Below are positions 1 to 60,814 of a stretch of DNA of 64,000 nucleotides, one piece after another (position 1 is the stretch's first letter; each line of letters opens with the position of its first letter). The DNA lies in the NCBI GenBank assembly GCA_038043285.1, contig JBBTCJ010000022.1, forward strand, positions 15,539 to 79,538, written 5' to 3'. The notes under the pieces were generated by a model. That model was not told the origin of the DNA and did no database searches. It saw only the letters and a program-made list of their open reading frames with translations. Both the position numbers and the translations under genes were made by a program. This stretch comes from Planctomycetota bacterium (GTDB lineage: Bacteria > Planctomycetota > Phycisphaerae > UBA1845).

Positions 1-480
1 TGGCTGTTCGACCTGCGCCCCGAACAAATCGAGGTGGTGATCCATCCGGAGTCGATCATTCATTCGATGGTCGAGTTCTGCGACGGTTCGATCATCGCCC
101 AGATGAGCGTGCCGGACATGCGCACGCCGATTCAATATGCGTTGACCTATCCGCATCGCCTGCCGTGTCCTTCCGCGGCGTTGGACTTTCAGGCCATGCG
201 ACGGCTTTCCTTCGAGATCCCGGACGCAGACCGCTTCCCGGCCGTCCGACTGGGGCACGAGGTCGCGCGACGCGGGGGAACATGCGGGGCGGTCTTTAAC
301 GCGGCCAACGAAGCCGCGGTCCGGTTGTTCCGCGACGGAGCCATCGGGTTCCTGGAGATTTCGCGCCACGTCGAACGAGTACTCCACGAACATGAGTTTC
401 ACGAAGCGCCCACCTTGGGGGGGCTGTGGGAGGCGGACGATTGGGCCAGGCAGGAGGTGTTGCGTTGCACAACGTGTTGA
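1..480 (+). CDS. dxr: 1-deoxy-D-xylulose-5-phosphate reductoisomerase, C-terminal part (5' end lies outside the window)
   Basis: The frame is open from nt 1. It contains 'HPESIIHSMVEFCDGSIIAQMSVPDMRTPIQYALTYPHRL', which is typical of the Dxr C-terminal domain. The dxr-rseP synteny is conserved. Confidence 0.9.
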   Translation, partial: WLFDLRPEQIEVVIHPESIIHSMVEFCDGSIIAQMSVPDMRTPIQYALTYPHRLPCPSAALDFQAMRRLSFEIPDADRFPAVRLGHEVARRGGTCGAVFNAANEAAVRLFRDGAIGFLEISRHVERVLHEHEFHEAPTLGGLWEADDWARQEVLRCTTC

Positions 481-485
481 CGGGA

Positions 486-4501: not shown

Positions 4502-6046
4502 TCAACGGAGTCGATTGCGGAACCAGACCAGTGCATCGTTGGTCAATCCGCTCAGTCCGCTGCGGTCGAAGGTGGCGATCACGTCATTGGCTCCATCCGC
4601 GTCCAGGTCGACCACCAGCAGCGCATTGACTTGAGTGCCTCCCGAAACTTCGGATGGAGAAACGCTGGGATCCGTCGTGGACGGACTTGGGCCGGGACGT
4701 CCGGGGGCGTCGTCGTCAATCACCAAAGCCGTGCCCCACTGGTCGTACAGGCTGGACGCGCCGTCCGCGTTCAAGAGTACCACGGCCCCGCCCGCGGAGG
4801 CGATGATGTCGACCTGTCCGTCGAGCGTCACGTCGCCCAATGCGATGGCCCTGGGGAATCGTCCGGTGAACTCGGCGATGGTGTAGACGCGCCACGGAAG
4901 GTTCGGCAGCGGCGCCGTGGTGGCTTCCGGCCCCGGACCCTTGAACCACTGAAGCAGCCCGCCGGTGGTCGATCGGATCAACACGTCCGCCGCTCCGTCG
5001 GCGTCGATATCCGCGACGCGGGCGACGTCCGCTTGGGTGGCCAATTGTCCCACCGCGCCCACCTGCCAGTCGCTGCTGGTGAAGTGAAAATCATCCGGGA
5101 CGTCGATCGTGGGGTTCCGGAACCATCGGATATTCATGCTTCCGGCGGCCGGAAACGTCGCCACGATATCCAGATCCCCGTCGGCGTCGATGTCCCCCAG
5201 GGCGACGTCCTTGACCGAGGTTCCGCTGGGGATCGGATTGGGAACCACGCTCACCTCCCAGCTTCGATCGCGGACCGCCGCGAACCCGCCGTTGGTGAAC
5301 TGCAAGACGGTCGCGGAGGCTTCGTCCTCAGCGCAGCCCGAGTTCCAGGCCACTACGAGGTCGGTGTCCCCGTCGCCGTCGGCGTCGCCGGCCGTCATGC
5401 CAGTGAATCCTCCCAGTTCCGGATCCCCGGCGCTTCCCGCGCCCGCGAGGCGCGAGGCCTCGATCGGCGCTTCCACCCATGCCAGCGCCTGAGCAACCTG
5501 GCCACCATCCGCAGGTCCGAGGTATACCAGAATCAAGCCCGCGAGTTCGACGGAGTCCGGCACGTCGCTGTCCAGGCAGGTCGCCCCGGCTTCCATGGTG
5601 TCTTTCAGTAACACCGCGATGTCCGGCGCGCCGTCCTGATCGAAGTCAGCGATGGTCAGCCCGGCCACGGACACCACCGGGATGTTTCCCGCCAGGGTGA
5701 CGGTTTCAAACGAAATGTTGCCGATCGTATCTCGGCGCTGCAGATGAATCTGTACCGGCTGCGACTGGTTCCATGCCGACACCAGGTCGATGAAGCCGTC
5801 GCTGTCGAGATCCGCGGCGGCGACGAACTGCGGACCGGCGGAGTCTTCGCTTTGGGGATCGACCTGGATGGCGGTGAAAAAGCTCAGCGTTCGTCCGGTT
5901 CCCAGGAAGTCGTCGGAATTGCCGCTCGGGGCGACGGAAGCCCCGTAGTTCCCCCGACATCCGATGAACAAGCCGATCGCGGAGACCGCGACGATCGCGG
6001 AACCCAGACCCCACCAACCCCACGCGTTGTGCTTGCGAACCATCAT
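4502..6046 (-). CDS. Secreted or membrane-anchored FG-GAP/VCBS-repeat (integrin-alpha-like beta-propeller) protein
   Basis: There are about seven repeats of 'DxDxDGxxDhh' (DLDSDGFIDLV, DFDQDGAPDIAV, GDADGDGDTDLVV, DIDADGDLDIV, DIDADGAADVL, VTLDGQVDII, DLDADGANDVI). The start was moved to the ATGATG at 6046, which gives a hydrophobic N-terminus 'WGWWGLGSAIVAVSAIGLFIGC'. Confidence 0.8.
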   Translation of the reverse strand: MMVRKHNAWGWWGLGSAIVAVSAIGLFIGCRGNYGASVAPSGNSDDFLGTGRTLSFFTAIQVDPQSEDSAGPQFVAAADLDSDGFIDLVSAWNQSQPVQIHLQRRDTIGNISFETVTLAGNIPVVSVAGLTIADFDQDGAPDIAVLLKDTMEAGATCLDSDVPDSVELAGLILVYLGPADGGQVAQALAWVEAPIEASRLAGAGSAGDPELGGFTGMTAGDADGDGDTDLVVAWNSGCAEDEASATVLQFTNGGFAAVRDRSWEVSVVPNPIPSGTSVKDVALGDIDADGDLDIVATFPAAGSMNIRWFRNPTIDVPDDFHFTSSDWQVGAVGQLATQADVARVADIDADGAADVLIRSTTGGLLQWFKGPGPEATTAPLPNLPWRVYTIAEFTGRFPRAIALGDVTLDGQVDIIASAGGAVVLLNADGASSLYDQWGTALVIDDDAPGRPGPSPSTTDPSVSPSEVSGGTQVNALLVVDLDADGANDVIATFDRSGLSGLTNDALVWFRNRLR

Positions 6047-19177: not shown

Positions 19178-19335
19178 CCTCATACCAGGCACAGGTCGGA
19201 AGTGTCCACTGGGACTGTCGACGTACCAGGGTCTTTCAGTTTTCTATTCGCGGGATATTGCCGTGAATCGGCGGGACTCGTTGGCCGATCCCCGTCCGCC
19301 GGCATGGTCTATCAAAAGCCCAATATGGGGGGGGA

Positions 19336-19355
19336 CCGCTCCCTTGCGGTCGCGG
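19336..19355 (-). repeat. REP-like motif CCGCGAC-N6-GGAGCGG (single copy)
   Basis: The minus strand reads ccgcgaccgcaagggagcgg. The core is the same as in the RAYT-flanking repeats. Confidence 0.55.
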
Positions 19356-19650
19356 TACTGATAGGCTTGACTCCGACAAAAGACCTTGGGGGGTGACATC
19401 ATTTCGGCGTTTCGCTGTTTGGAGTTTCCAACGCTCCCGCCTTTCCCGTCGTGGCTTCGTCACTGCGCGGCTTCGACCGTCCCCGTTCGTCGAGCGTCGC
19501 ACGCCACTCGGCGGCCTTCTCGGCATAGCCCTGGCCCGGCTCGGCGGCGTCCCATAGGACCCGTTGCCCACGAATTGTTATTCCGCCGCCCACAATTCAG
19601 ACGTCTGAACCGGGCACGGTTGAGCACCCAGGTACGTTCAATGTGACCTC

Positions 19651-41579: not shown

Positions 41580-41620
41580 ACCAAGCGATCCGACTCACCT
41601 TCATCTTCGGCTTCGACGGT

Positions 41621-41738
41621 TCGCTCCCTCACGGTCGCAGCTCTGATGAGAAGCGGCTGGCCGTTTGAACAGCGCCGCGACCGTGAGGGAGCGGAGCCGT
41701 TTCTGTTTCTGTTCCGTACCGCGACCGTCAGGGAGCGG
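41621..41738. repeat. Cluster of three REP-like motifs (CCGCGAC-N6-GGAGCGG), one inverted and two direct
   Basis: Copies are 41621-41640 (minus, degenerate), 41675-41694 (ccgcgaccgtgagggagcgg) and 41719-41738 (ccgcgaccgtcagggagcgg). Confidence 0.65.
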
Positions 41739-41882
41739 CGTCTGCTGACCCGACAAATAAGGTGCCTACGATCACTACCGCGCCCGGCCGTCCGGCAAGC
41801 TGGGATCAAGTCGCGTGACGCGCGCCGGCGAACAAGCGCCATCGCCGGAAACCTGGAGGGCTTCGCGCTAACTGTCGCGCCC

Positions 41883-56850: not shown

Positions 56851-57870
56851 ATGCCCACCCCGATCGACCCGGCCGTTCAAAAAGCCACCGACGAACTTCG
56901 CCGTAAGTACCAGGCCGTCCGCGACGAGATCGCCAAAGCGATCGTGGGCCATGATGACATCGTCGACGGCGTGCTGACGGCCCTGTTCGTCGGCGGACAC
57001 GTGCTCATCGAAGGCGTGCCCGGTTTGGGCAAGACCTACCTGGTCCGCACGCTGGCGCAGGCCGTCGATTTGAAGTTCTCGCGCATCCAGTTCACGCCCG
57101 ACCTGATGCCCGCGGACATCATCGGTACGACCATCATTAACGAGGATCCCGGCACCGGCCGGCGGACCTTTCAGTTCCAGCGCGGTCCGCTGTTCGCGCA
57201 AATCATCCTGGCGGACGAAATCAACCGGGCCACGCCCAAGACGCAGTCGGCCCTCCTGGAGGCCATGCAGGAACATACCGTGACCGTGGGGGGAACTCGG
57301 CATGCGCTCGAAGAGCCATTCTTCGTGATGGCCACCCAGAACCCCATCGAGCAGGAGGGAACGTACCCGCTTCCCGAAGCCCAGCTCGACCGCTTCATGT
57401 TCAAACTGGTGGTCAGCTATTCCAACCGCGAGGAGCTGAAGACGATCATGGACCGCACGACGACGGGCTACAAAGCCGACGTGAAGGCGGTCATGAGCGG
57501 GGCAGAGATCGTGGGGACGCAGAACCTCGTGCGGCGGGTGGTGATGGCCCCGCACGTGCAGGACTACGCGATTCGTTTGTCGATGGCCTCCCATCCGGGC
57601 GGGCCTTTCGCCGTCGAAGTCACCAACAAATACGTCCGCTGGGGCGTCAGCCCGCGAGCGGTGCAGACGCTGACGCTGGGGGCCAAGCTCAACGCGCTGC
57701 TCGACGGGCGGTTCAACACGGCCTTCGCCGACGTGCAGAAGGTGTTCCTGCCCGCAATGCGGCACCGCATGTTGCTGAACTTCGAGGCCGAAGCCGAGGG
57801 CATCCAGGTCGACGACCTGCTCCGCGACATGCTCACGAACACGCCGACGATGGTGGAGGCGGCAGCGTAG
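56851..57870 (+). CDS. moxR: MoxR-family AAA+ ATPase
   Basis: Motifs are 'GHVLIEGVPGLGKT' and 'ILADEINRATPKTQSALLEAMQE..VT'. A GGAGAA SD precedes the start. Confidence 0.9.
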   Translation: MPTPIDPAVQKATDELRRKYQAVRDEIAKAIVGHDDIVDGVLTALFVGGHVLIEGVPGLGKTYLVRTLAQAVDLKFSRIQFTPDLMPADIIGTTIINEDPGTGRRTFQFQRGPLFAQIILADEINRATPKTQSALLEAMQEHTVTVGGTRHALEEPFFVMATQNPIEQEGTYPLPEAQLDRFMFKLVVSYSNREELKTIMDRTTTGYKADVKAVMSGAEIVGTQNLVRRVVMAPHVQDYAIRLSMASHPGGPFAVEVTNKYVRWGVSPRAVQTLTLGAKLNALLDGRFNTAFADVQKVFLPAMRHRMLLNFEAEAEGIQVDDLLRDMLTNTPTMVEAAA

Positions 57871-57908
57871 GGTGGGCAATGCCCATGAGAGAATGCGGAA
57901 TGCGGAAT

Positions 57909-58056
57909 TGAACCGCGACCGTTCTGGACCGCTCTCCGTCCTGGACGGCCCTCCGATCTGAACCGCGACAGATATGGAGCGGTCCGTCTGTTCCCTGGAT
58001 CGCCGACCGATGACTGCGTGCACGGCTGACCGCTTATTGCATGCGCGGTTCTGATC
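57909..58056 (+). repeat. Left copy of a ~130-150 bp direct repeat flanking the RAYT gene
   Basis: It is near-identical to 58640-58770 apart from a ~19-nt indel and a few substitutions. It contains two CCGCGAC cores and ends in 'ttattgcatgcgcggttctgatc'. Confidence 0.85.
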
Positions 58057-58072
58057 AAGAAATGACCGTTCG

Positions 58073-58609
58073 TTGCGTGCACGGCTCCATTTCGCATGGT
58101 ATCGTGCATCCACCGTGTCCGAGCCACTCGCGTTTCTTATCACCTTTCGCACCTACGGCTCTTGGCTCCATGGCGATCCACGAGGGTCGGTGGACAACGA
58201 CCACAACATCTTCGACACTCCCATGCTCGATCCCAAATCGTCTTTGTCGGTTGCGGAGAGCAACCGGCTCCGACACCCGCCTGTCGCCCTGACCGAAGCC
58301 CATCGTTCGGTGGTCGCGGACGCGATTCGTCGAGTCTGTGACGAGCGTCATTGGACGCTCTCGGCTCTGAATGTCCGAAGCAACCACATCCACGCGGTAG
58401 TCTCCGCCCCCGACTCTCCGGAACGCGTCATGCACGCCCTGAAGTCGTTTGCCACGCGCGCCCTGCGTGAATCAGGCCTGGCCGCTGCGGGCACTCGTCT
58501 CTGGTCGCGGCATGGGAGTACACGCTATCTATGGGAACCCCGCGAGCTGGAAGGAGCCAACTTCTACGTCGTAGAAAGCCAAGGCCCGGACCGCAGGGGC
58601 GAACTCTGA
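58073..58609 (+). mobile_element. REP-associated tyrosine transposase (RAYT; IS200/IS605-like Y1 HUH transposase)
   Basis: The sequence 'FLITFRTYGSWLHGD', the HUH motif 'SNHIHAVV' and the candidate catalytic-Tyr segment 'GSTRYLW' (its assignment as the catalytic Tyr is an inference) support the call. The start is uncertain (TTG at 58073 or GTG at 58115). Confidence 0.8.
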
Positions 58610-58639
58610 GTTGCGACCTTTCTCGACCGCTCCCCGATC

Positions 58640-58770
58640 TGAACCGCGACCGTTCTGGGATGCCCTCCGATCTGAACCGCGACAGATATGGAGCGGTCCG
58701 CCTGTTCCCTGGATCGCCGACCGATGACTGCGTGCGCGTCTGACCGCTTATTGCATGCGCGGTTCTGATC
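58640..58770 (+). repeat. Right copy of the RAYT-flanking direct repeat
   Basis: See the left copy at 57909-58056. The orientation is the same. Confidence 0.85.
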
Positions 58771-58849
58771 GGCACTCGATGCCCGCCGGTCGATGACCGG
58801 ATCCCAGCAAGGGTTTCAGTCAGCAACGTCAAACTGTGGGGTACCGCGG

Positions 58850-60814
58850 TCACGTTCTTTTGAACTGCCGGTTGAGGTCGGCCTTGGTGAGTCGCAGCAT
58901 CGTGGGTCGGCCATGCGGGCAGGCGCTGGGCTTGTCGAGCAGGTGCCGCTTGGCCATCAGCGATTCGATCTCCTCCGGGCGGAGCACGTCGCCGGCCTTG
59001 ACCGCCGCCTTGCAGGCCATCATGTCCAGCACCTTGTGAATGACGACCTCCGGCTGAGCGGGACGACCGGGCGAAGGCAGCGTCGCGCCGTGTTCCGGTT
59101 GCTGCGCAAGCAGGTCCAGCAAGTCACCCATGAATGCGGCGACGTCCGTATCGCGGACCACGGAGGGGAAGGTGTGGACGGCGATCGAATCCGCGCCGAA
59201 CGGCGTGGCCTCGATGCCCAGCCGGGCGAGCAGGTCGGCATGGGCGTCGAGCAAACCCAGTTGCGCCGGCGTCACGCGAAGGCTCTCCGGAAGGAGCAGC
59301 CGTTGAGACTCCAGCGGGCCTTTCGTGATGCGGTCGCGGAGTTGCTCGTACATCACCCGCTCGTGAAGGGCATGTTGGTCGATGATGATGATCCCCTCGT
59401 CGGTCTCGGCCACGAGATAGAGGTTGTGCATCTGGACGGCCGTCGAGCGAAGAGCATCCGCCGTCGCGGTCAAGGCTTCCAAGCCCAACGGGGCCGCATC
59501 GAACCGCCCGGGCGGCGGCGATGACGCGGCGGAAAGCAAGGACGGCTCGGCGTGCCGTGGTTCATCGGGCGGTGCGTAGAGCGGCCGCCAGGCTTCGCCG
59601 ATTCCCAGCGGAGTCGAGGTCGACGATCGAGGCTCGCCGAAGCGCGGGTGATCCGACTGCCCATACCCGCCCCCCCGACCTTCCACCGGTGGCGCGGTGG
59701 CGAGGCGTCCGACGGGATGGGCGTCCATGACCGACGCGGCGAACTCCCGCCGCATCCGGTCGCGCTCCTCCTCGCTGACGATCGGGGGAGAAGCGCCGGT
59801 CCGTAATCTCGGCGTCAGATCGCAGCGCTGGAAGGTCTCACGCAGGGCGCTGAGCACTTGCGAGTGGATCAGGCCCGAATCGGCCCAGCGGACCTCGACC
59901 TTGGTCGGATGGACGTTGACGTCCACCTCCGCGGGATCAATCGAAATAAACACGAAGACCACGCCGTGCCGGGAAGGCTCGACCAGCCCGCGATAGGCCT
60001 CGCGGATGGCGTGTTGGATGAAGCGATCGCGCACGAATCGCCCGTTGACGAAGGCGTATTGCCACTGGGTCGTGGCGCGAGACTGAGCGGGCGGGGCCGC
60101 GAAAATGTCCAGCTCCACGCCGCGTTCGTTTCGTTGCACGTGCAGCAGGGCGGAGGCGAGTTCGACGCCGAAAAACTTCCCCAGTCGTTCGATGCGCTGC
60201 GCGCACGCGGGCAGGTTCTGGCTGACGCGCCCGTTGTTGTGGAGTTCAAAGGCGATTCGCGGGTGGGCCAGCGCGATCCGGGAGAATTGTTCGCTGACGT
60301 GACCCATTTCAGTGGGTCCGCCGCGGAGAAACTTTCGCCGAGCCGGAACGTTGAAGAACAGTTCGCGGACTTCGACGGCCGTTCCTTCCGGACAACCGGC
60401 CGCCTGCGCGGATTCGAGCTGGTCGCCGGCGATGCGAATCTCCTGACCCTCTACCGTGCCGCGCGGGCGGGAGACCATCCGCAGGTGGGAGACCGCCGCG
60501 ATGCTGGCCAATGCCTCCCCGCGAAAGCCCATCGTCGAGATGCGGTAGAGATCGTCCTCGCAGGCAAGCTTGCTGGTGGCGTGGGGAGTGACCGCCAATC
60601 GCAGGTCCTCGGCCGACATTCCCAGCCCGTCGTCGGTGACGCGGATCAATCGACGTCCGCCTTCCTCCACGGCCAGGACGATGCGCCCGGCCCCGGCGTC
60701 GAGGGAGTTTTCCAGGAGTTCCTTGACCACGCTGGCGGGGCGTTCGATGACCTCGCCCGCGGCGATCTTGTTGACCAGCAGGTCGGGCAGGATTCGGATT
60801 CGCGGCTGAGTCAT
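58850..60814 (-). CDS. mutL: DNA mismatch repair protein MutL
   Basis: Starting at the ATG at 60814: 'IRILPDLLVNKIAAGEVIERPASVVKELLENSLDAG', 'DDGLGM' and the C-terminal 'CPHGRPT'. Confidence 0.95.
   Translation of the reverse strand: MTQPRIRILPDLLVNKIAAGEVIERPASVVKELLENSLDAGAGRIVLAVEEGGRRLIRVTDDGLGMSAEDLRLAVTPHATSKLACEDDLYRISTMGFRGEALASIAAVSHLRMVSRPRGTVEGQEIRIAGDQLESAQAAGCPEGTAVEVRELFFNVPARRKFLRGGPTEMGHVSEQFSRIALAHPRIAFELHNNGRVSQNLPACAQRIERLGKFFGVELASALLHVQRNERGVELDIFAAPPAQSRATTQWQYAFVNGRFVRDRFIQHAIREAYRGLVEPSRHGVVFVFISIDPAEVDVNVHPTKVEVRWADSGLIHSQVLSALRETFQRCDLTPRLRTGASPPIVSEEERDRMRREFAASVMDAHPVGRLATAPPVEGRGGGYGQSDHPRFGEPRSSTSTPLGIGEAWRPLYAPPDEPRHAEPSLLSAASSPPPGRFDAAPLGLEALTATADALRSTAVQMHNLYLVAETDEGIIIIDQHALHERVMYEQLRDRITKGPLESQRLLLPESLRVTPAQLGLLDAHADLLARLGIEATPFGADSIAVHTFPSVVRDTDVAAFMGDLLDLLAQQPEHGATLPSPGRPAQPEVVIHKVLDMMACKAAVKAGDVLRPEEIESLMAKRHLLDKPSACPHGRPTMLRLTKADLNRQFKRT

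Follow-up and report, generated by a model that had tools for sequence, protein, structure and literature searches.

The interval between a moxR-type gene and mutL in a groundwater Planctomycetota genome most likely holds a class-3 TnpA_Y1 REPtron, that is, a single resident HUH/Y1 transposase gene flanked to the left and right by clusters of the REP hairpins that belong to it. These hairpins are probably the substrates of the transposase. Loci arranged in this way have been reported earlier, so that this one adds a rather ordinary case to a class that has received little study.

Results

Throughout, the window denotes the whole stretch of DNA that was analysed (64,000 nt), and positions refer to it unless another locus is named. 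REP units fall into three types according to their inner 2-bp stem (A = CA/TG, B = GT/AC, C = CC/GG). With these types the locus reads as follows:

56851-57870, + strand, moxR-type AAA+ ATPase gene (Pfam AAA_3, 1.2e-65, and AAA_lid_2), the upstream neighbour, outside the element
57905-57935, + strand, degenerate REP unit of type C', with the foot and the 5' half (GAATTGAACCGCGACCG) kept and the 3' half lost (2-mismatch pattern match)
57955-57984, + strand, left intact REP hairpin of type A (nhmmer E = 3.8e-9; MFE fold (((((..((....))..))))), which matches the covarying family structure)
57985-58027, left REPIN spacer of 43 nt, conserved between the flanks (23-nt sub-repeat family D3)
58028-58056, - strand, B-like degenerate inverted REP unit that closes the left REPIN; it reads GATCAGAACCGCGCATGCAATAAGCGGTC and keeps only the outer stem
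58064-58086, - strand, further decayed B-like half unit between REPIN and gene (family D3, 83% identical to 58005-58027)
58115-58609, + strand, putative class-3 TnpA_Y1 (HUH/Y1) gene, 164 aa, GTG start (Pfam Y1_Tnp; product identical to the public protein P0001)
58607-58668, + strand, pair of decayed REP units that repeat every 33 nt (58607-58639 and 58636-58668; direct-repeat family D1), with an exact 15-mer at 58636
58669-58698, + strand, right intact REP hairpin of type A, identical in sequence to 57955-57984
58699-58741, right REPIN spacer of 43 nt, with three substitutions relative to the left copy
58742-58770, - strand, B-like inverted REP unit that closes the right REPIN (long-hairpin centroid fold)
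58850-60814, - strand, mutL (Pfam MutL_C, DNA_mis_repair, HATPase_c_3), the convergent downstream neighbour, outside the element

The unit directly adjoins moxR, as the earlier note on this DNA had said: moxR ends at 57870, and the convergent mutL ends at 58850. P0001, which carries the name of a Planctomycetota MAG ('MAG: transposase [Planctomycetota bacterium]'), is found on three contigs from three independent metagenome assemblies, in one context and with an interval that is 100% identical. The next-best protein among 5.8 billion sequences is only 68% identical to it. The third codon positions of the gene are less rich in G+C than those of its neighbours (GC3 of 69% versus 78-87%), which would also fit a more recent arrival. 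For the comparison with an empty moxR-mutL site, the nearest MutL relatives proved to be 65% identical and to have different neighbours; neither moxR nor mutL was found next to the transposase gene in any relative examined.

The transposase had been read as an ORF of 178 aa. This ORF exists (58073-58609, TTG start), but it starts too early: the GTG at 58115 is the start of the identical public protein P0001 and of nearly all homologues, and the true protein has 164 aa. The ORF is intact and keeps every residue that is invariant in the family. Indeed, the NHIHAVV motif and the C-terminal tyrosine (YVVESQ) noticed before are both present, and both motifs are invariant in an alignment of 23 homologues, down to H91 and H93 of the HUH motif and Y151 and Q156 of the Y-motif; the HUH motif itself reads NHIH in the window versus NHVH in the family consensus. 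The same alignment contains two invariant blocks that are specific for the family, TYGTWLHGD.RGS and W.RHGST.Y. Residues 73-146 of the 178-aa ORF match Pfam PF01797 (Y1_Tnp) with 33.9 bits versus a cut-off of 23, confirming the proposed HUH/Y1 homology. The AlphaFold (AF2) model, with a pLDDT of 83 and a pTM of 0.77, has the order beta-alpha-beta-beta-alpha-beta-alpha. A sequence-profile search of the PDB gave only weak IS200 matches (E about 0.01), so that a fold search was needed. When the AF2 model was compared with the PDB using Foldseek, the best 30 matches were without exception Y1 transposases, headed by 4er8, the structure of E. coli TnpA_REP in complex with a REP hairpin, and then by the TnpA proteins of IS608 and ISDra2. 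By Pfam threshold, by motifs and by fold order, the protein is a member of the HUH/Y1 superfamily.

The name RAYT, which the earlier note had given to the enzyme, holds in part. It is a REP-associated HUH/Y1 enzyme, but not a classical RAYT. The classical RAYT/TnpA_REP proteins (class 2) were rejected on the score against NCBIfam REP_Tyr_transpos (NF047646; 27.9 bits, below the cut-off of 80), on the motif Y----Q instead of YxxxNP and on the CnGA foot instead of GTAG. The IS200/IS605 TnpA proteins (class 1) were rejected on the score against NCBIfam IS200 (NF033573; 32 bits, below the cut-off of 55), on the glutamine at Y+5 and not Y+4, and on the one copy and one context that were seen. In the passages on class 3 TnpA_Y1 of Quentin et al. 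2018 (BMC Genomics 19:475, PMC6006769), the class has the motifs NHVH, W[TA] and YV[VI][AENY]EQ (Y----Q), proteins of about 178 aa with an extended conserved N-terminus, and hosts mainly among the Planctomycetes, Acidobacteria and Proteobacteria. According to the same passages, its genes have on their flanks several atypical hairpins whose foot is CnGA and which can be present in many copies, its members 'resemble both IS and REPtrons', three related genes occur in Solibacter, and the class was built from only 24 proteins. The window protein reads NHIH, W130-S and YVVESQ at the three motifs, with conservative departures only (I for V, S for T/A and S for E), and the feet in the window are CTGA (57958, 58672) and CAGA (B-like units), in agreement with the CnGA foot of the class-3 flanking hairpins. 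Judged by the published motifs and description, the protein fits class 3 and would belong to neither class 1 nor class 2. A full phmmer scan of 1.84 billion representatives gave a family of 2,697 cluster representatives at E<=1e-3 and of 1,440 at E<=1e-10.

The flanks of the gene had been described as near-identical sequences in the same orientation, and this is what we find. The stretch 57936-58056 matches 58650-58770 over 121 nt without a gap at 94% identity, far beyond chance, and with one 17-nt indel the match grows to 57905-58056 versus 58636-58770, where 129 of 135 aligned positions are identical. The 15-mer GATCTGAACCGCGAC is present exactly at 57955, 58636 and 58669, and with two mismatches at 57905. 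Of the two sub-repeats claimed for each flank, both are exact on the right, while on the left one is exact and one imperfect. With up to three mismatches the 15-mer has 20 matches in the window versus 4.7 expected. Two more imperfect copies lie on the - strand at the 3' ends of the blocks (58042-58056, 58756-58770), showing that each block ends in an inverted repeat, and the inverted pair ggaccgctc/gagcggtcc is likewise present in the left flank.

The core of each flank is a unit of ~102 nt (57955-58056 and 58669-58770) that consists of a type-A unit on the + strand, 43 nt, and a B-like unit on the - strand. The intact type-A unit reads GAT-CTGA-ACCGC-GA-CA-GATA-TG-GA-GCGGT on both sides (57955-57984, 58669-58698), with the foot CTGA, the outer stem ACCGC/GCGGT, tandem GA/GA, the inner stem CA/TG and the loop GATA. 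REPINs, in the sense that Bertels and Rainey reportedly gave the term in 2011, are two inverted REPs with a short spacer that form a long hairpin, with many dispersed similar copies per genome. Both flank cores have this structure of inverted REPs, short spacer and long-hairpin fold; the 110-nt left REPIN sequence folds as a long hairpin with z = -2.59. Around each REPIN there are decayed half units, which give rise to the 23-nt and 33-nt sub-repeats. The 3' part of the left spacer (58005-58027) is such a decayed B-like half unit, and the decayed unit 58607-58639 overlaps the stop codon of the transposase gene. On folding, the units at 57905-57935 and 58607-58668 did not form the family hairpin. 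Because the B-like arms and the C' units are decayed, there is only one intact hairpin per flank.

What looks like a 'direct repeat' of 94-96% is one REP cluster that is present twice. The remark in the earlier note that long direct flanks are less usual for such genes goes back to a mis-parse: each flank is a cluster with an inverted REP pair of its own, so that inverted REPs bracket the gene as in classical REPtrons. The REPs nearest to the gene are mutually inverted, and so are the outermost ones. The two intact hairpins are both on the + strand, which is the layout of IS200/IS605 and not the commonest one in class 3. REPIN clusters beside RAYT genes and tandem near-identical REPINs have already been described in P. 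fluorescens, and in the passages of PMC6006769 the E. coli REPtron consists of three REPINs. We found no support for the idea that the flanks mark a duplication target. The repeat is much too long for a target-site duplication or att site, and its units are present elsewhere, so that both were rejected; a CRISPR-like or tandem array was rejected because the 23-nt and 33-nt periodicities are only partial and are made of decayed REP units. Rfam gave no match in 57000-59500 at E up to 1, and a promoter and terminator scan gave no promoter, and no terminator within the flanks.

In the REP unit, a C-n-G-A/T foot precedes an outer stem of 4 bp that is rich in G+C; tandem G-A/G-A mismatches separate this stem from an inner one of 2 bp, which is closed by a GNNA loop. 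A scan of the collection with GATCNGAACCGCGN{8,11}AGCGGTC gave at least 111 stretches, mostly from Planctomycetota and Phycisphaerae MAGs, and the REPINs of the scanned genomes typically consist of an A unit and an inverted B unit. Distant relatives among 80 metagenomic loci encoding homologues have the same hairpin architecture with other outer stems, e.g. GCCC/GGGC. When 1.29 Mb were searched with a skeleton pattern that does not require pairing, 378 units were detected, of which 263 form no fewer than 4/5 outer pairs together with 2/2 inner pairs; the inner pairs are CC/GG, GC/GC, CA/TG, GT/AC and CT/AG. Covariation was analysed with 104 distinct units that lie no more than 500 nt from a homologous gene. 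With the proposed structure, 85.7% of the cells are paired versus 60.6% in shuffles, and the covariation score is 0.574 versus 0.161 shuffled, a value reached by none of 500 shuffles; since the units were selected by pattern and are related, these shuffle statistics overstate the significance and are not probabilities. Slid registers pair 32-52%. The outermost of the five tested outer pairs (A-T) shows no covariation across the family, so that the supported outer stem is CCGC/GCGG with 4 bp. In MFE folds of the window units the structure is reproduced for the type-A and type-C copies, and the B-like units form the outer stem only. Covariation across the 104 units thus supports the hairpin.

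The hairpin accompanies the gene across the family. At least one such unit lies within 500 nt in 65 of 81 homologue loci, most commonly as one + unit 60-80 nt upstream and one - unit 30-55 nt downstream, and a repeat common to the upstream and downstream flanks is present in nearly all of them. The loci of the closest relatives (L116-L118, 61-63% identity) have direct flank repeats of 120-139 nt in which A units are combined with inverted B units. Each locus has spacers of its own, and within L116, within L117 and within the window the left and right spacers resemble each other. Copies without a transposase gene beside them are present too, in the window at two places:

19334-19363, - strand, solitary intact REP hairpin of type C (inner CC/GG, loop GCAA; nhmmer E = 1.9e-7; family fold)
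41621-41740, intergenic cluster of three type-C units, one on the - and two on the + strand (nhmmer matches)

The first sits between convergent ORFs with no transposase gene, and in the second, two units satisfy the skeleton test, forming 4/5 of the outer and 2/2 of the inner pairs. A compact 66-nt REPIN (z = -3.76) follows ~8 kb past the end of the window (L001 18125-18190). Hence about 72 kb of the source genome hold further copies of the flank motif as REP hairpins at 19334, at 41620-41740 and at L001 18125-18190, and at the level of the REP unit the flanks are not unique to the locus. A second copy of the full block with the 43-nt spacer was not found in these about 72 kb. Any genome-wide number of REPs in the source genome would be an extrapolation from them; in the related MAG JACPWG01 the REP hairpin occurs at 20 places or more.

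One may argue that the likeness of the flanks has no functional meaning, and that local duplication or gene conversion of REP clusters, by unequal recombination or slippage, produced two similar clusters with the gene merely in between. In P. fluorescens the higher-order arrangement seen most often consists of tandem near-identical REPINs together with their flanking sequence, spacers that are locus-specific yet matched between the flanks (L116, L117, window) look like concerted evolution, and the flanks are full of partial tandem units with the 23-nt and 33-nt periods. However, four divergent loci of the clade show this arrangement, with spacers that differ from locus to locus, and a process that is linked to the gene and acts repeatedly would explain this better than a single accident; in addition, the right end of the repeat falls exactly on the REP foot. 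We regard this explanation as possible but unlikely. It would account for the origin of the repeat only and is compatible with the REPtron reading.

Relatives of the window gene were also encountered inside other genes, outside the window. A homologue reached via a REP match (L080) lies inside an uninterrupted 884-codon frame of alanyl-tRNA synthetase. The same alaS site is used in L133 and in L161, where the complete AlaRS has 1,400 aa; L059 has only a REP-encoded peptide at this site, while L142 carries two inserted copies in one AlaRS of 1,556 aa. Other hosts are ValRS (L192, P0306, P0321), AddB (P0329), an HrpA-like helicase (P0354) and a methyltransferase-like protein (P0277). A translated REP marks either border of each insert, on the + strand upstream (…SRDRKGA…) and on the - strand downstream (…PLP[DHY]GRGS…), showing that the whole REPtron was inserted in frame. 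His-x-His and Y----Q are kept in all inserts, with NHVH in the alaS copies and KHVH in the valS copy of L192. About 30 of the 120 best relatives of the fusion P0246 have the insert, and insert-bearing AlaRS are interleaved with insert-free ones that reach up to 79% identity. A quick NJ tree groups the alaS copies in a single clade, apart from the valS copy. The JGI pipeline has given some of these proteins the name 'alanyl-tRNA synthetase/REP element-mobilizing transposase RayT'. REP insertions in frame have precedents, e.g. the Rickettsia RPEs and REPs inside tRNA synthetase genes; a limited literature search found nothing on whole RAYT genes inside aaRS genes, which may still have been reported. 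These aaRS-embedded relatives are more surprising than the window locus.

Since the in-frame cassettes indicate that class-3 cassettes moved as a unit at least a few times, they keep alive another reading of the locus, in which the whole unit (~57905-58770) would be an autonomous IS200/IS605-like transposon. The type-A hairpins would be its left and right ends, and it would excise precisely and reinsert from a single-stranded circle. The LE and RE hairpins of IS608 are on the same strand, as are the identical hairpins at 57955 and 58669. The occurrence of the gene and its REPs in frame inside alaS (at two sites), valS, addB and the hrpA-like gene is in line with such an element, the interleaved insert-free AlaRS would fit precise loss, and the absence of moxR/mutL synteny in relatives and the lower GC3 of the gene point the same way. 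So does the statement in the passages of PMC6006769 that class 3 'resemble both IS and REPtrons', with its three related Solibacter genes. Against it, only one copy was seen, with a next-best protein of 68% identity among 5.8 billion sequences, and its context is identical in the three independent metagenome assemblies. In addition, hairpins without a gene at several sites are unexplained by an IS alone, and the commonest flanking hairpins of class 3 are inverted, not direct. We consider this reading rather improbable. Doubtful, too, is a broader proposal for the class, in which its REPtrons would still be mobile as whole REP-gene-REP cassettes with seamless insertion and excision, the window copy, with its identical same-strand hairpins at both ends, being parked between moxR and mutL, and the relatives having settled in frame in loops of essential genes, where they would persist with intact catalytic motifs as co-opted or hitch-hiking domains.

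Elsewhere, REPs serve as terminators or mRNA stabilisers and are found mostly downstream of genes; here they occupy the intervals that separate moxR, the ORF and mutL, with the solo copy at 19334 lying between convergent ORFs. That the flanks are chiefly such RNA or transcriptional elements around an inactive relic is nevertheless very improbable given the lack of an Rfam match at E up to 1 and of a terminator-like site within the flanks, the intact ORF with all family-invariant residues, the conserved catalytic motifs across 1,440 cluster representatives (E<=1e-10) and a hairpin that tracks the gene across phyla.

Discussion

For the REPtron we propose the following course of events, by analogy with the TnpA proteins of IS608 and ISDra2 and with E. 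coli TnpA_REP. The transposase would bind hairpin and foot in single-stranded DNA, e.g. at a replication fork, and would cleave nearby with Y151, the metal being held by H91, H93 and Q156. It would then rejoin the strands, and as the outcome REP or REPIN units would be excised or copied and dispersed to intergenic sites. Binding and cleavage, and the REP or REPIN as the unit that moves, are thus taken over from the analogous systems. The likeness of the two flanks may be kept by REPIN copying or by gene conversion.

The locus is a clean, intact example from a groundwater Planctomycetota of a Y1 class that was defined from only 24 proteins. With about 2,700 cluster representatives, this class proves to be large. 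The definite, covariation-supported hairpin architecture offers a concrete substrate for binding and cleavage assays. Moreover, class 3 shows REPtron-like together with IS-like behaviour, and it bears on the origin of domesticated RAYT/REPIN systems from IS200-like elements.

Comparison with known systems

Classical REPtrons and REPINs, i.e. E. coli yafM with its BIMEs and the RAYTs of P. fluorescens SBW25, were reportedly described by Nunvar in 2010, Bertels and Rainey in 2011, and Ton-Hoang and Messing in 2012. The window locus shares with them a single-copy Y1 gene beside its own REP clusters, dispersed intergenic copies, and inverted REP pairs that form REPINs of ~100 nt, and the best fold match of its protein, 4er8, is a classical TnpA_REP. 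It differs in the Y-motif, which ends in Q and not in NP, in the CnGA foot in place of GTAG, and in the hairpin architecture.

With the IS200/IS605 TnpA proteins (IS608, ISDra2) the window protein has in common the HUH/Y1 fold and a glutamine after the tyrosine as third metal ligand, and with the IS608 and ISDra2 elements the locus shares same-strand hairpins in subterminal position on either side of the gene. In contrast to IS200/IS605, the glutamine is at Y+5 and not at Y+4, no tnpB and no multiple copies were seen, and the hairpins of the family are found on both strands and also without the gene.

The closest match is class 3 as it appears in the passages of Quentin et al. 2018. The protein agrees in NH[VI]H, in YV.E.Q with its Y----Q, and in the conserved N-terminal extension TYGTWLHGD.RGS; the locus agrees in a protein of about 160-180 aa, a Planctomycetes host, and hairpins with a CnGA foot both beside the gene and elsewhere in the genome. 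In those passages the class-3 hairpins are called only 'atypical', whereas the hairpins analysed here combine two stems, of 4 bp and 2 bp, with GA/GA between them and a GNNA loop. Unlike the class-3 loci in the same passages, the clade of the window carries a full REPIN in the same orientation on each flank, which produces the direct repeat of 135-150 nt.

Host genes with an embedded Y1 domain

We found that alanyl-tRNA synthetase genes contain in-frame homologues of the window's class-3 Y1 transposase gene together with the flanking REPs. The loci are listed below; the literature searched yielded no paper on such alaS-embedded homologues.

Stretches and proteins with class-3 Y1 or REP insertions in AlaRS
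L080, 1-2653, minus strand: alaS-embedded homologue
L161, 2930-7129: alaS-embedded homologue
L133, 2981-5458: alaS-embedded homologue
L142, 1607-6274: alaS-embedded homologues, two copies
L059, REP at 453-482, minus strand: alaS with only a REP-encoded peptide at the insertion site
P0246, P0389-P0393, P0397, P0405 and others: AlaRS proteins with an embedded homologue

The insertion site in AlaRS is a loop bounded by '..APAYTGLLE' and 'M.DV.YRVIADH', and the embedded homologues keep the NHVH and Y----Q motifs intact. Among the 120 best relatives of the AlaRS P0246, about 30 carry the insert, and these are interleaved with insert-free AlaRS at identities of up to 79%. Near the C-terminus of the L161 AlaRS frame, a third insertion contains no gene and is built from three translated REP units ('PDQSRDRKGADRIPNRDRKGADRIPNRDREGADRG'). 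REP arrays alone can occupy coding loops in genomes such as that of L161.

Further large nucleic-acid enzymes carry the class-3 Y1 domain, again embedded in-frame.

Other proteins with an embedded class-3 Y1 domain
L192, 2329-6108: ValRS
P0306 and P0321: ValRS
P0329, domain at 810-964: AddB
P0354, domain at 696-848: HrpA-like helicase
P0277: methyltransferase-like protein

In the two cases read residue by residue, the ValRS of L192 and the AddB P0329, the borders of the embedded domain are '..SRDRKGA..' and '..PLPDG[RH]GS..' peptides, encoded by REP(+) and REP(-), respectively. Because the valS copy branches apart from the alaS clade, the alaS and valS insertions are independent events.

REP variants and gene annotation

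In the groundwater Planctomycetota MAG JACPWG01, a longer element is repeated, with the type-C REP as its core and a consensus that continues for about 55 nt on the upstream side and about 40 nt on the downstream side. It occurs at at least 20 places (L009, L010, L018, L022, L023, L025, L026, L029, L033, L043, L044, L049, L057, L066, L067, L089, L099, L100, L112 and L113). Elsewhere, the foot-proximal part of the REP is tandemly repeated on its own, in L117 at 4713-4785 (..GCGGTACTGATC.. five times, with a period of 15 nt) and in L118 at 164-200 and about 886 (GATCAGAACCGCGACA repeated); these repeats could be scars left where the DNA was cleaved and rejoined again and again close to the foot.

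Homologue ORFs are often called too far upstream, through the REPs, giving spurious N-terminal extensions with 'NRDR' peptides, and database protein lengths for this family are therefore unreliable. Examples tied to such calls are the N-termini of P0008, P0065 and P0106 and the window ORF 58531-58743. A second, partial match to the Y1 protein adjoins the main gene in L182 (838-1116) and in L191 (1150-1257, minus strand); each is possibly a gene copy, tandem or inverted, that has decayed.

Finally, the GC3 of the window transposase gene (58115-58609) is 69%, compared with 78-87% in moxR, mutL, the FG-GAP gene and the cytochrome gene, indicating that its codon bias is weaker, that its expression is low or that it is of foreign origin.
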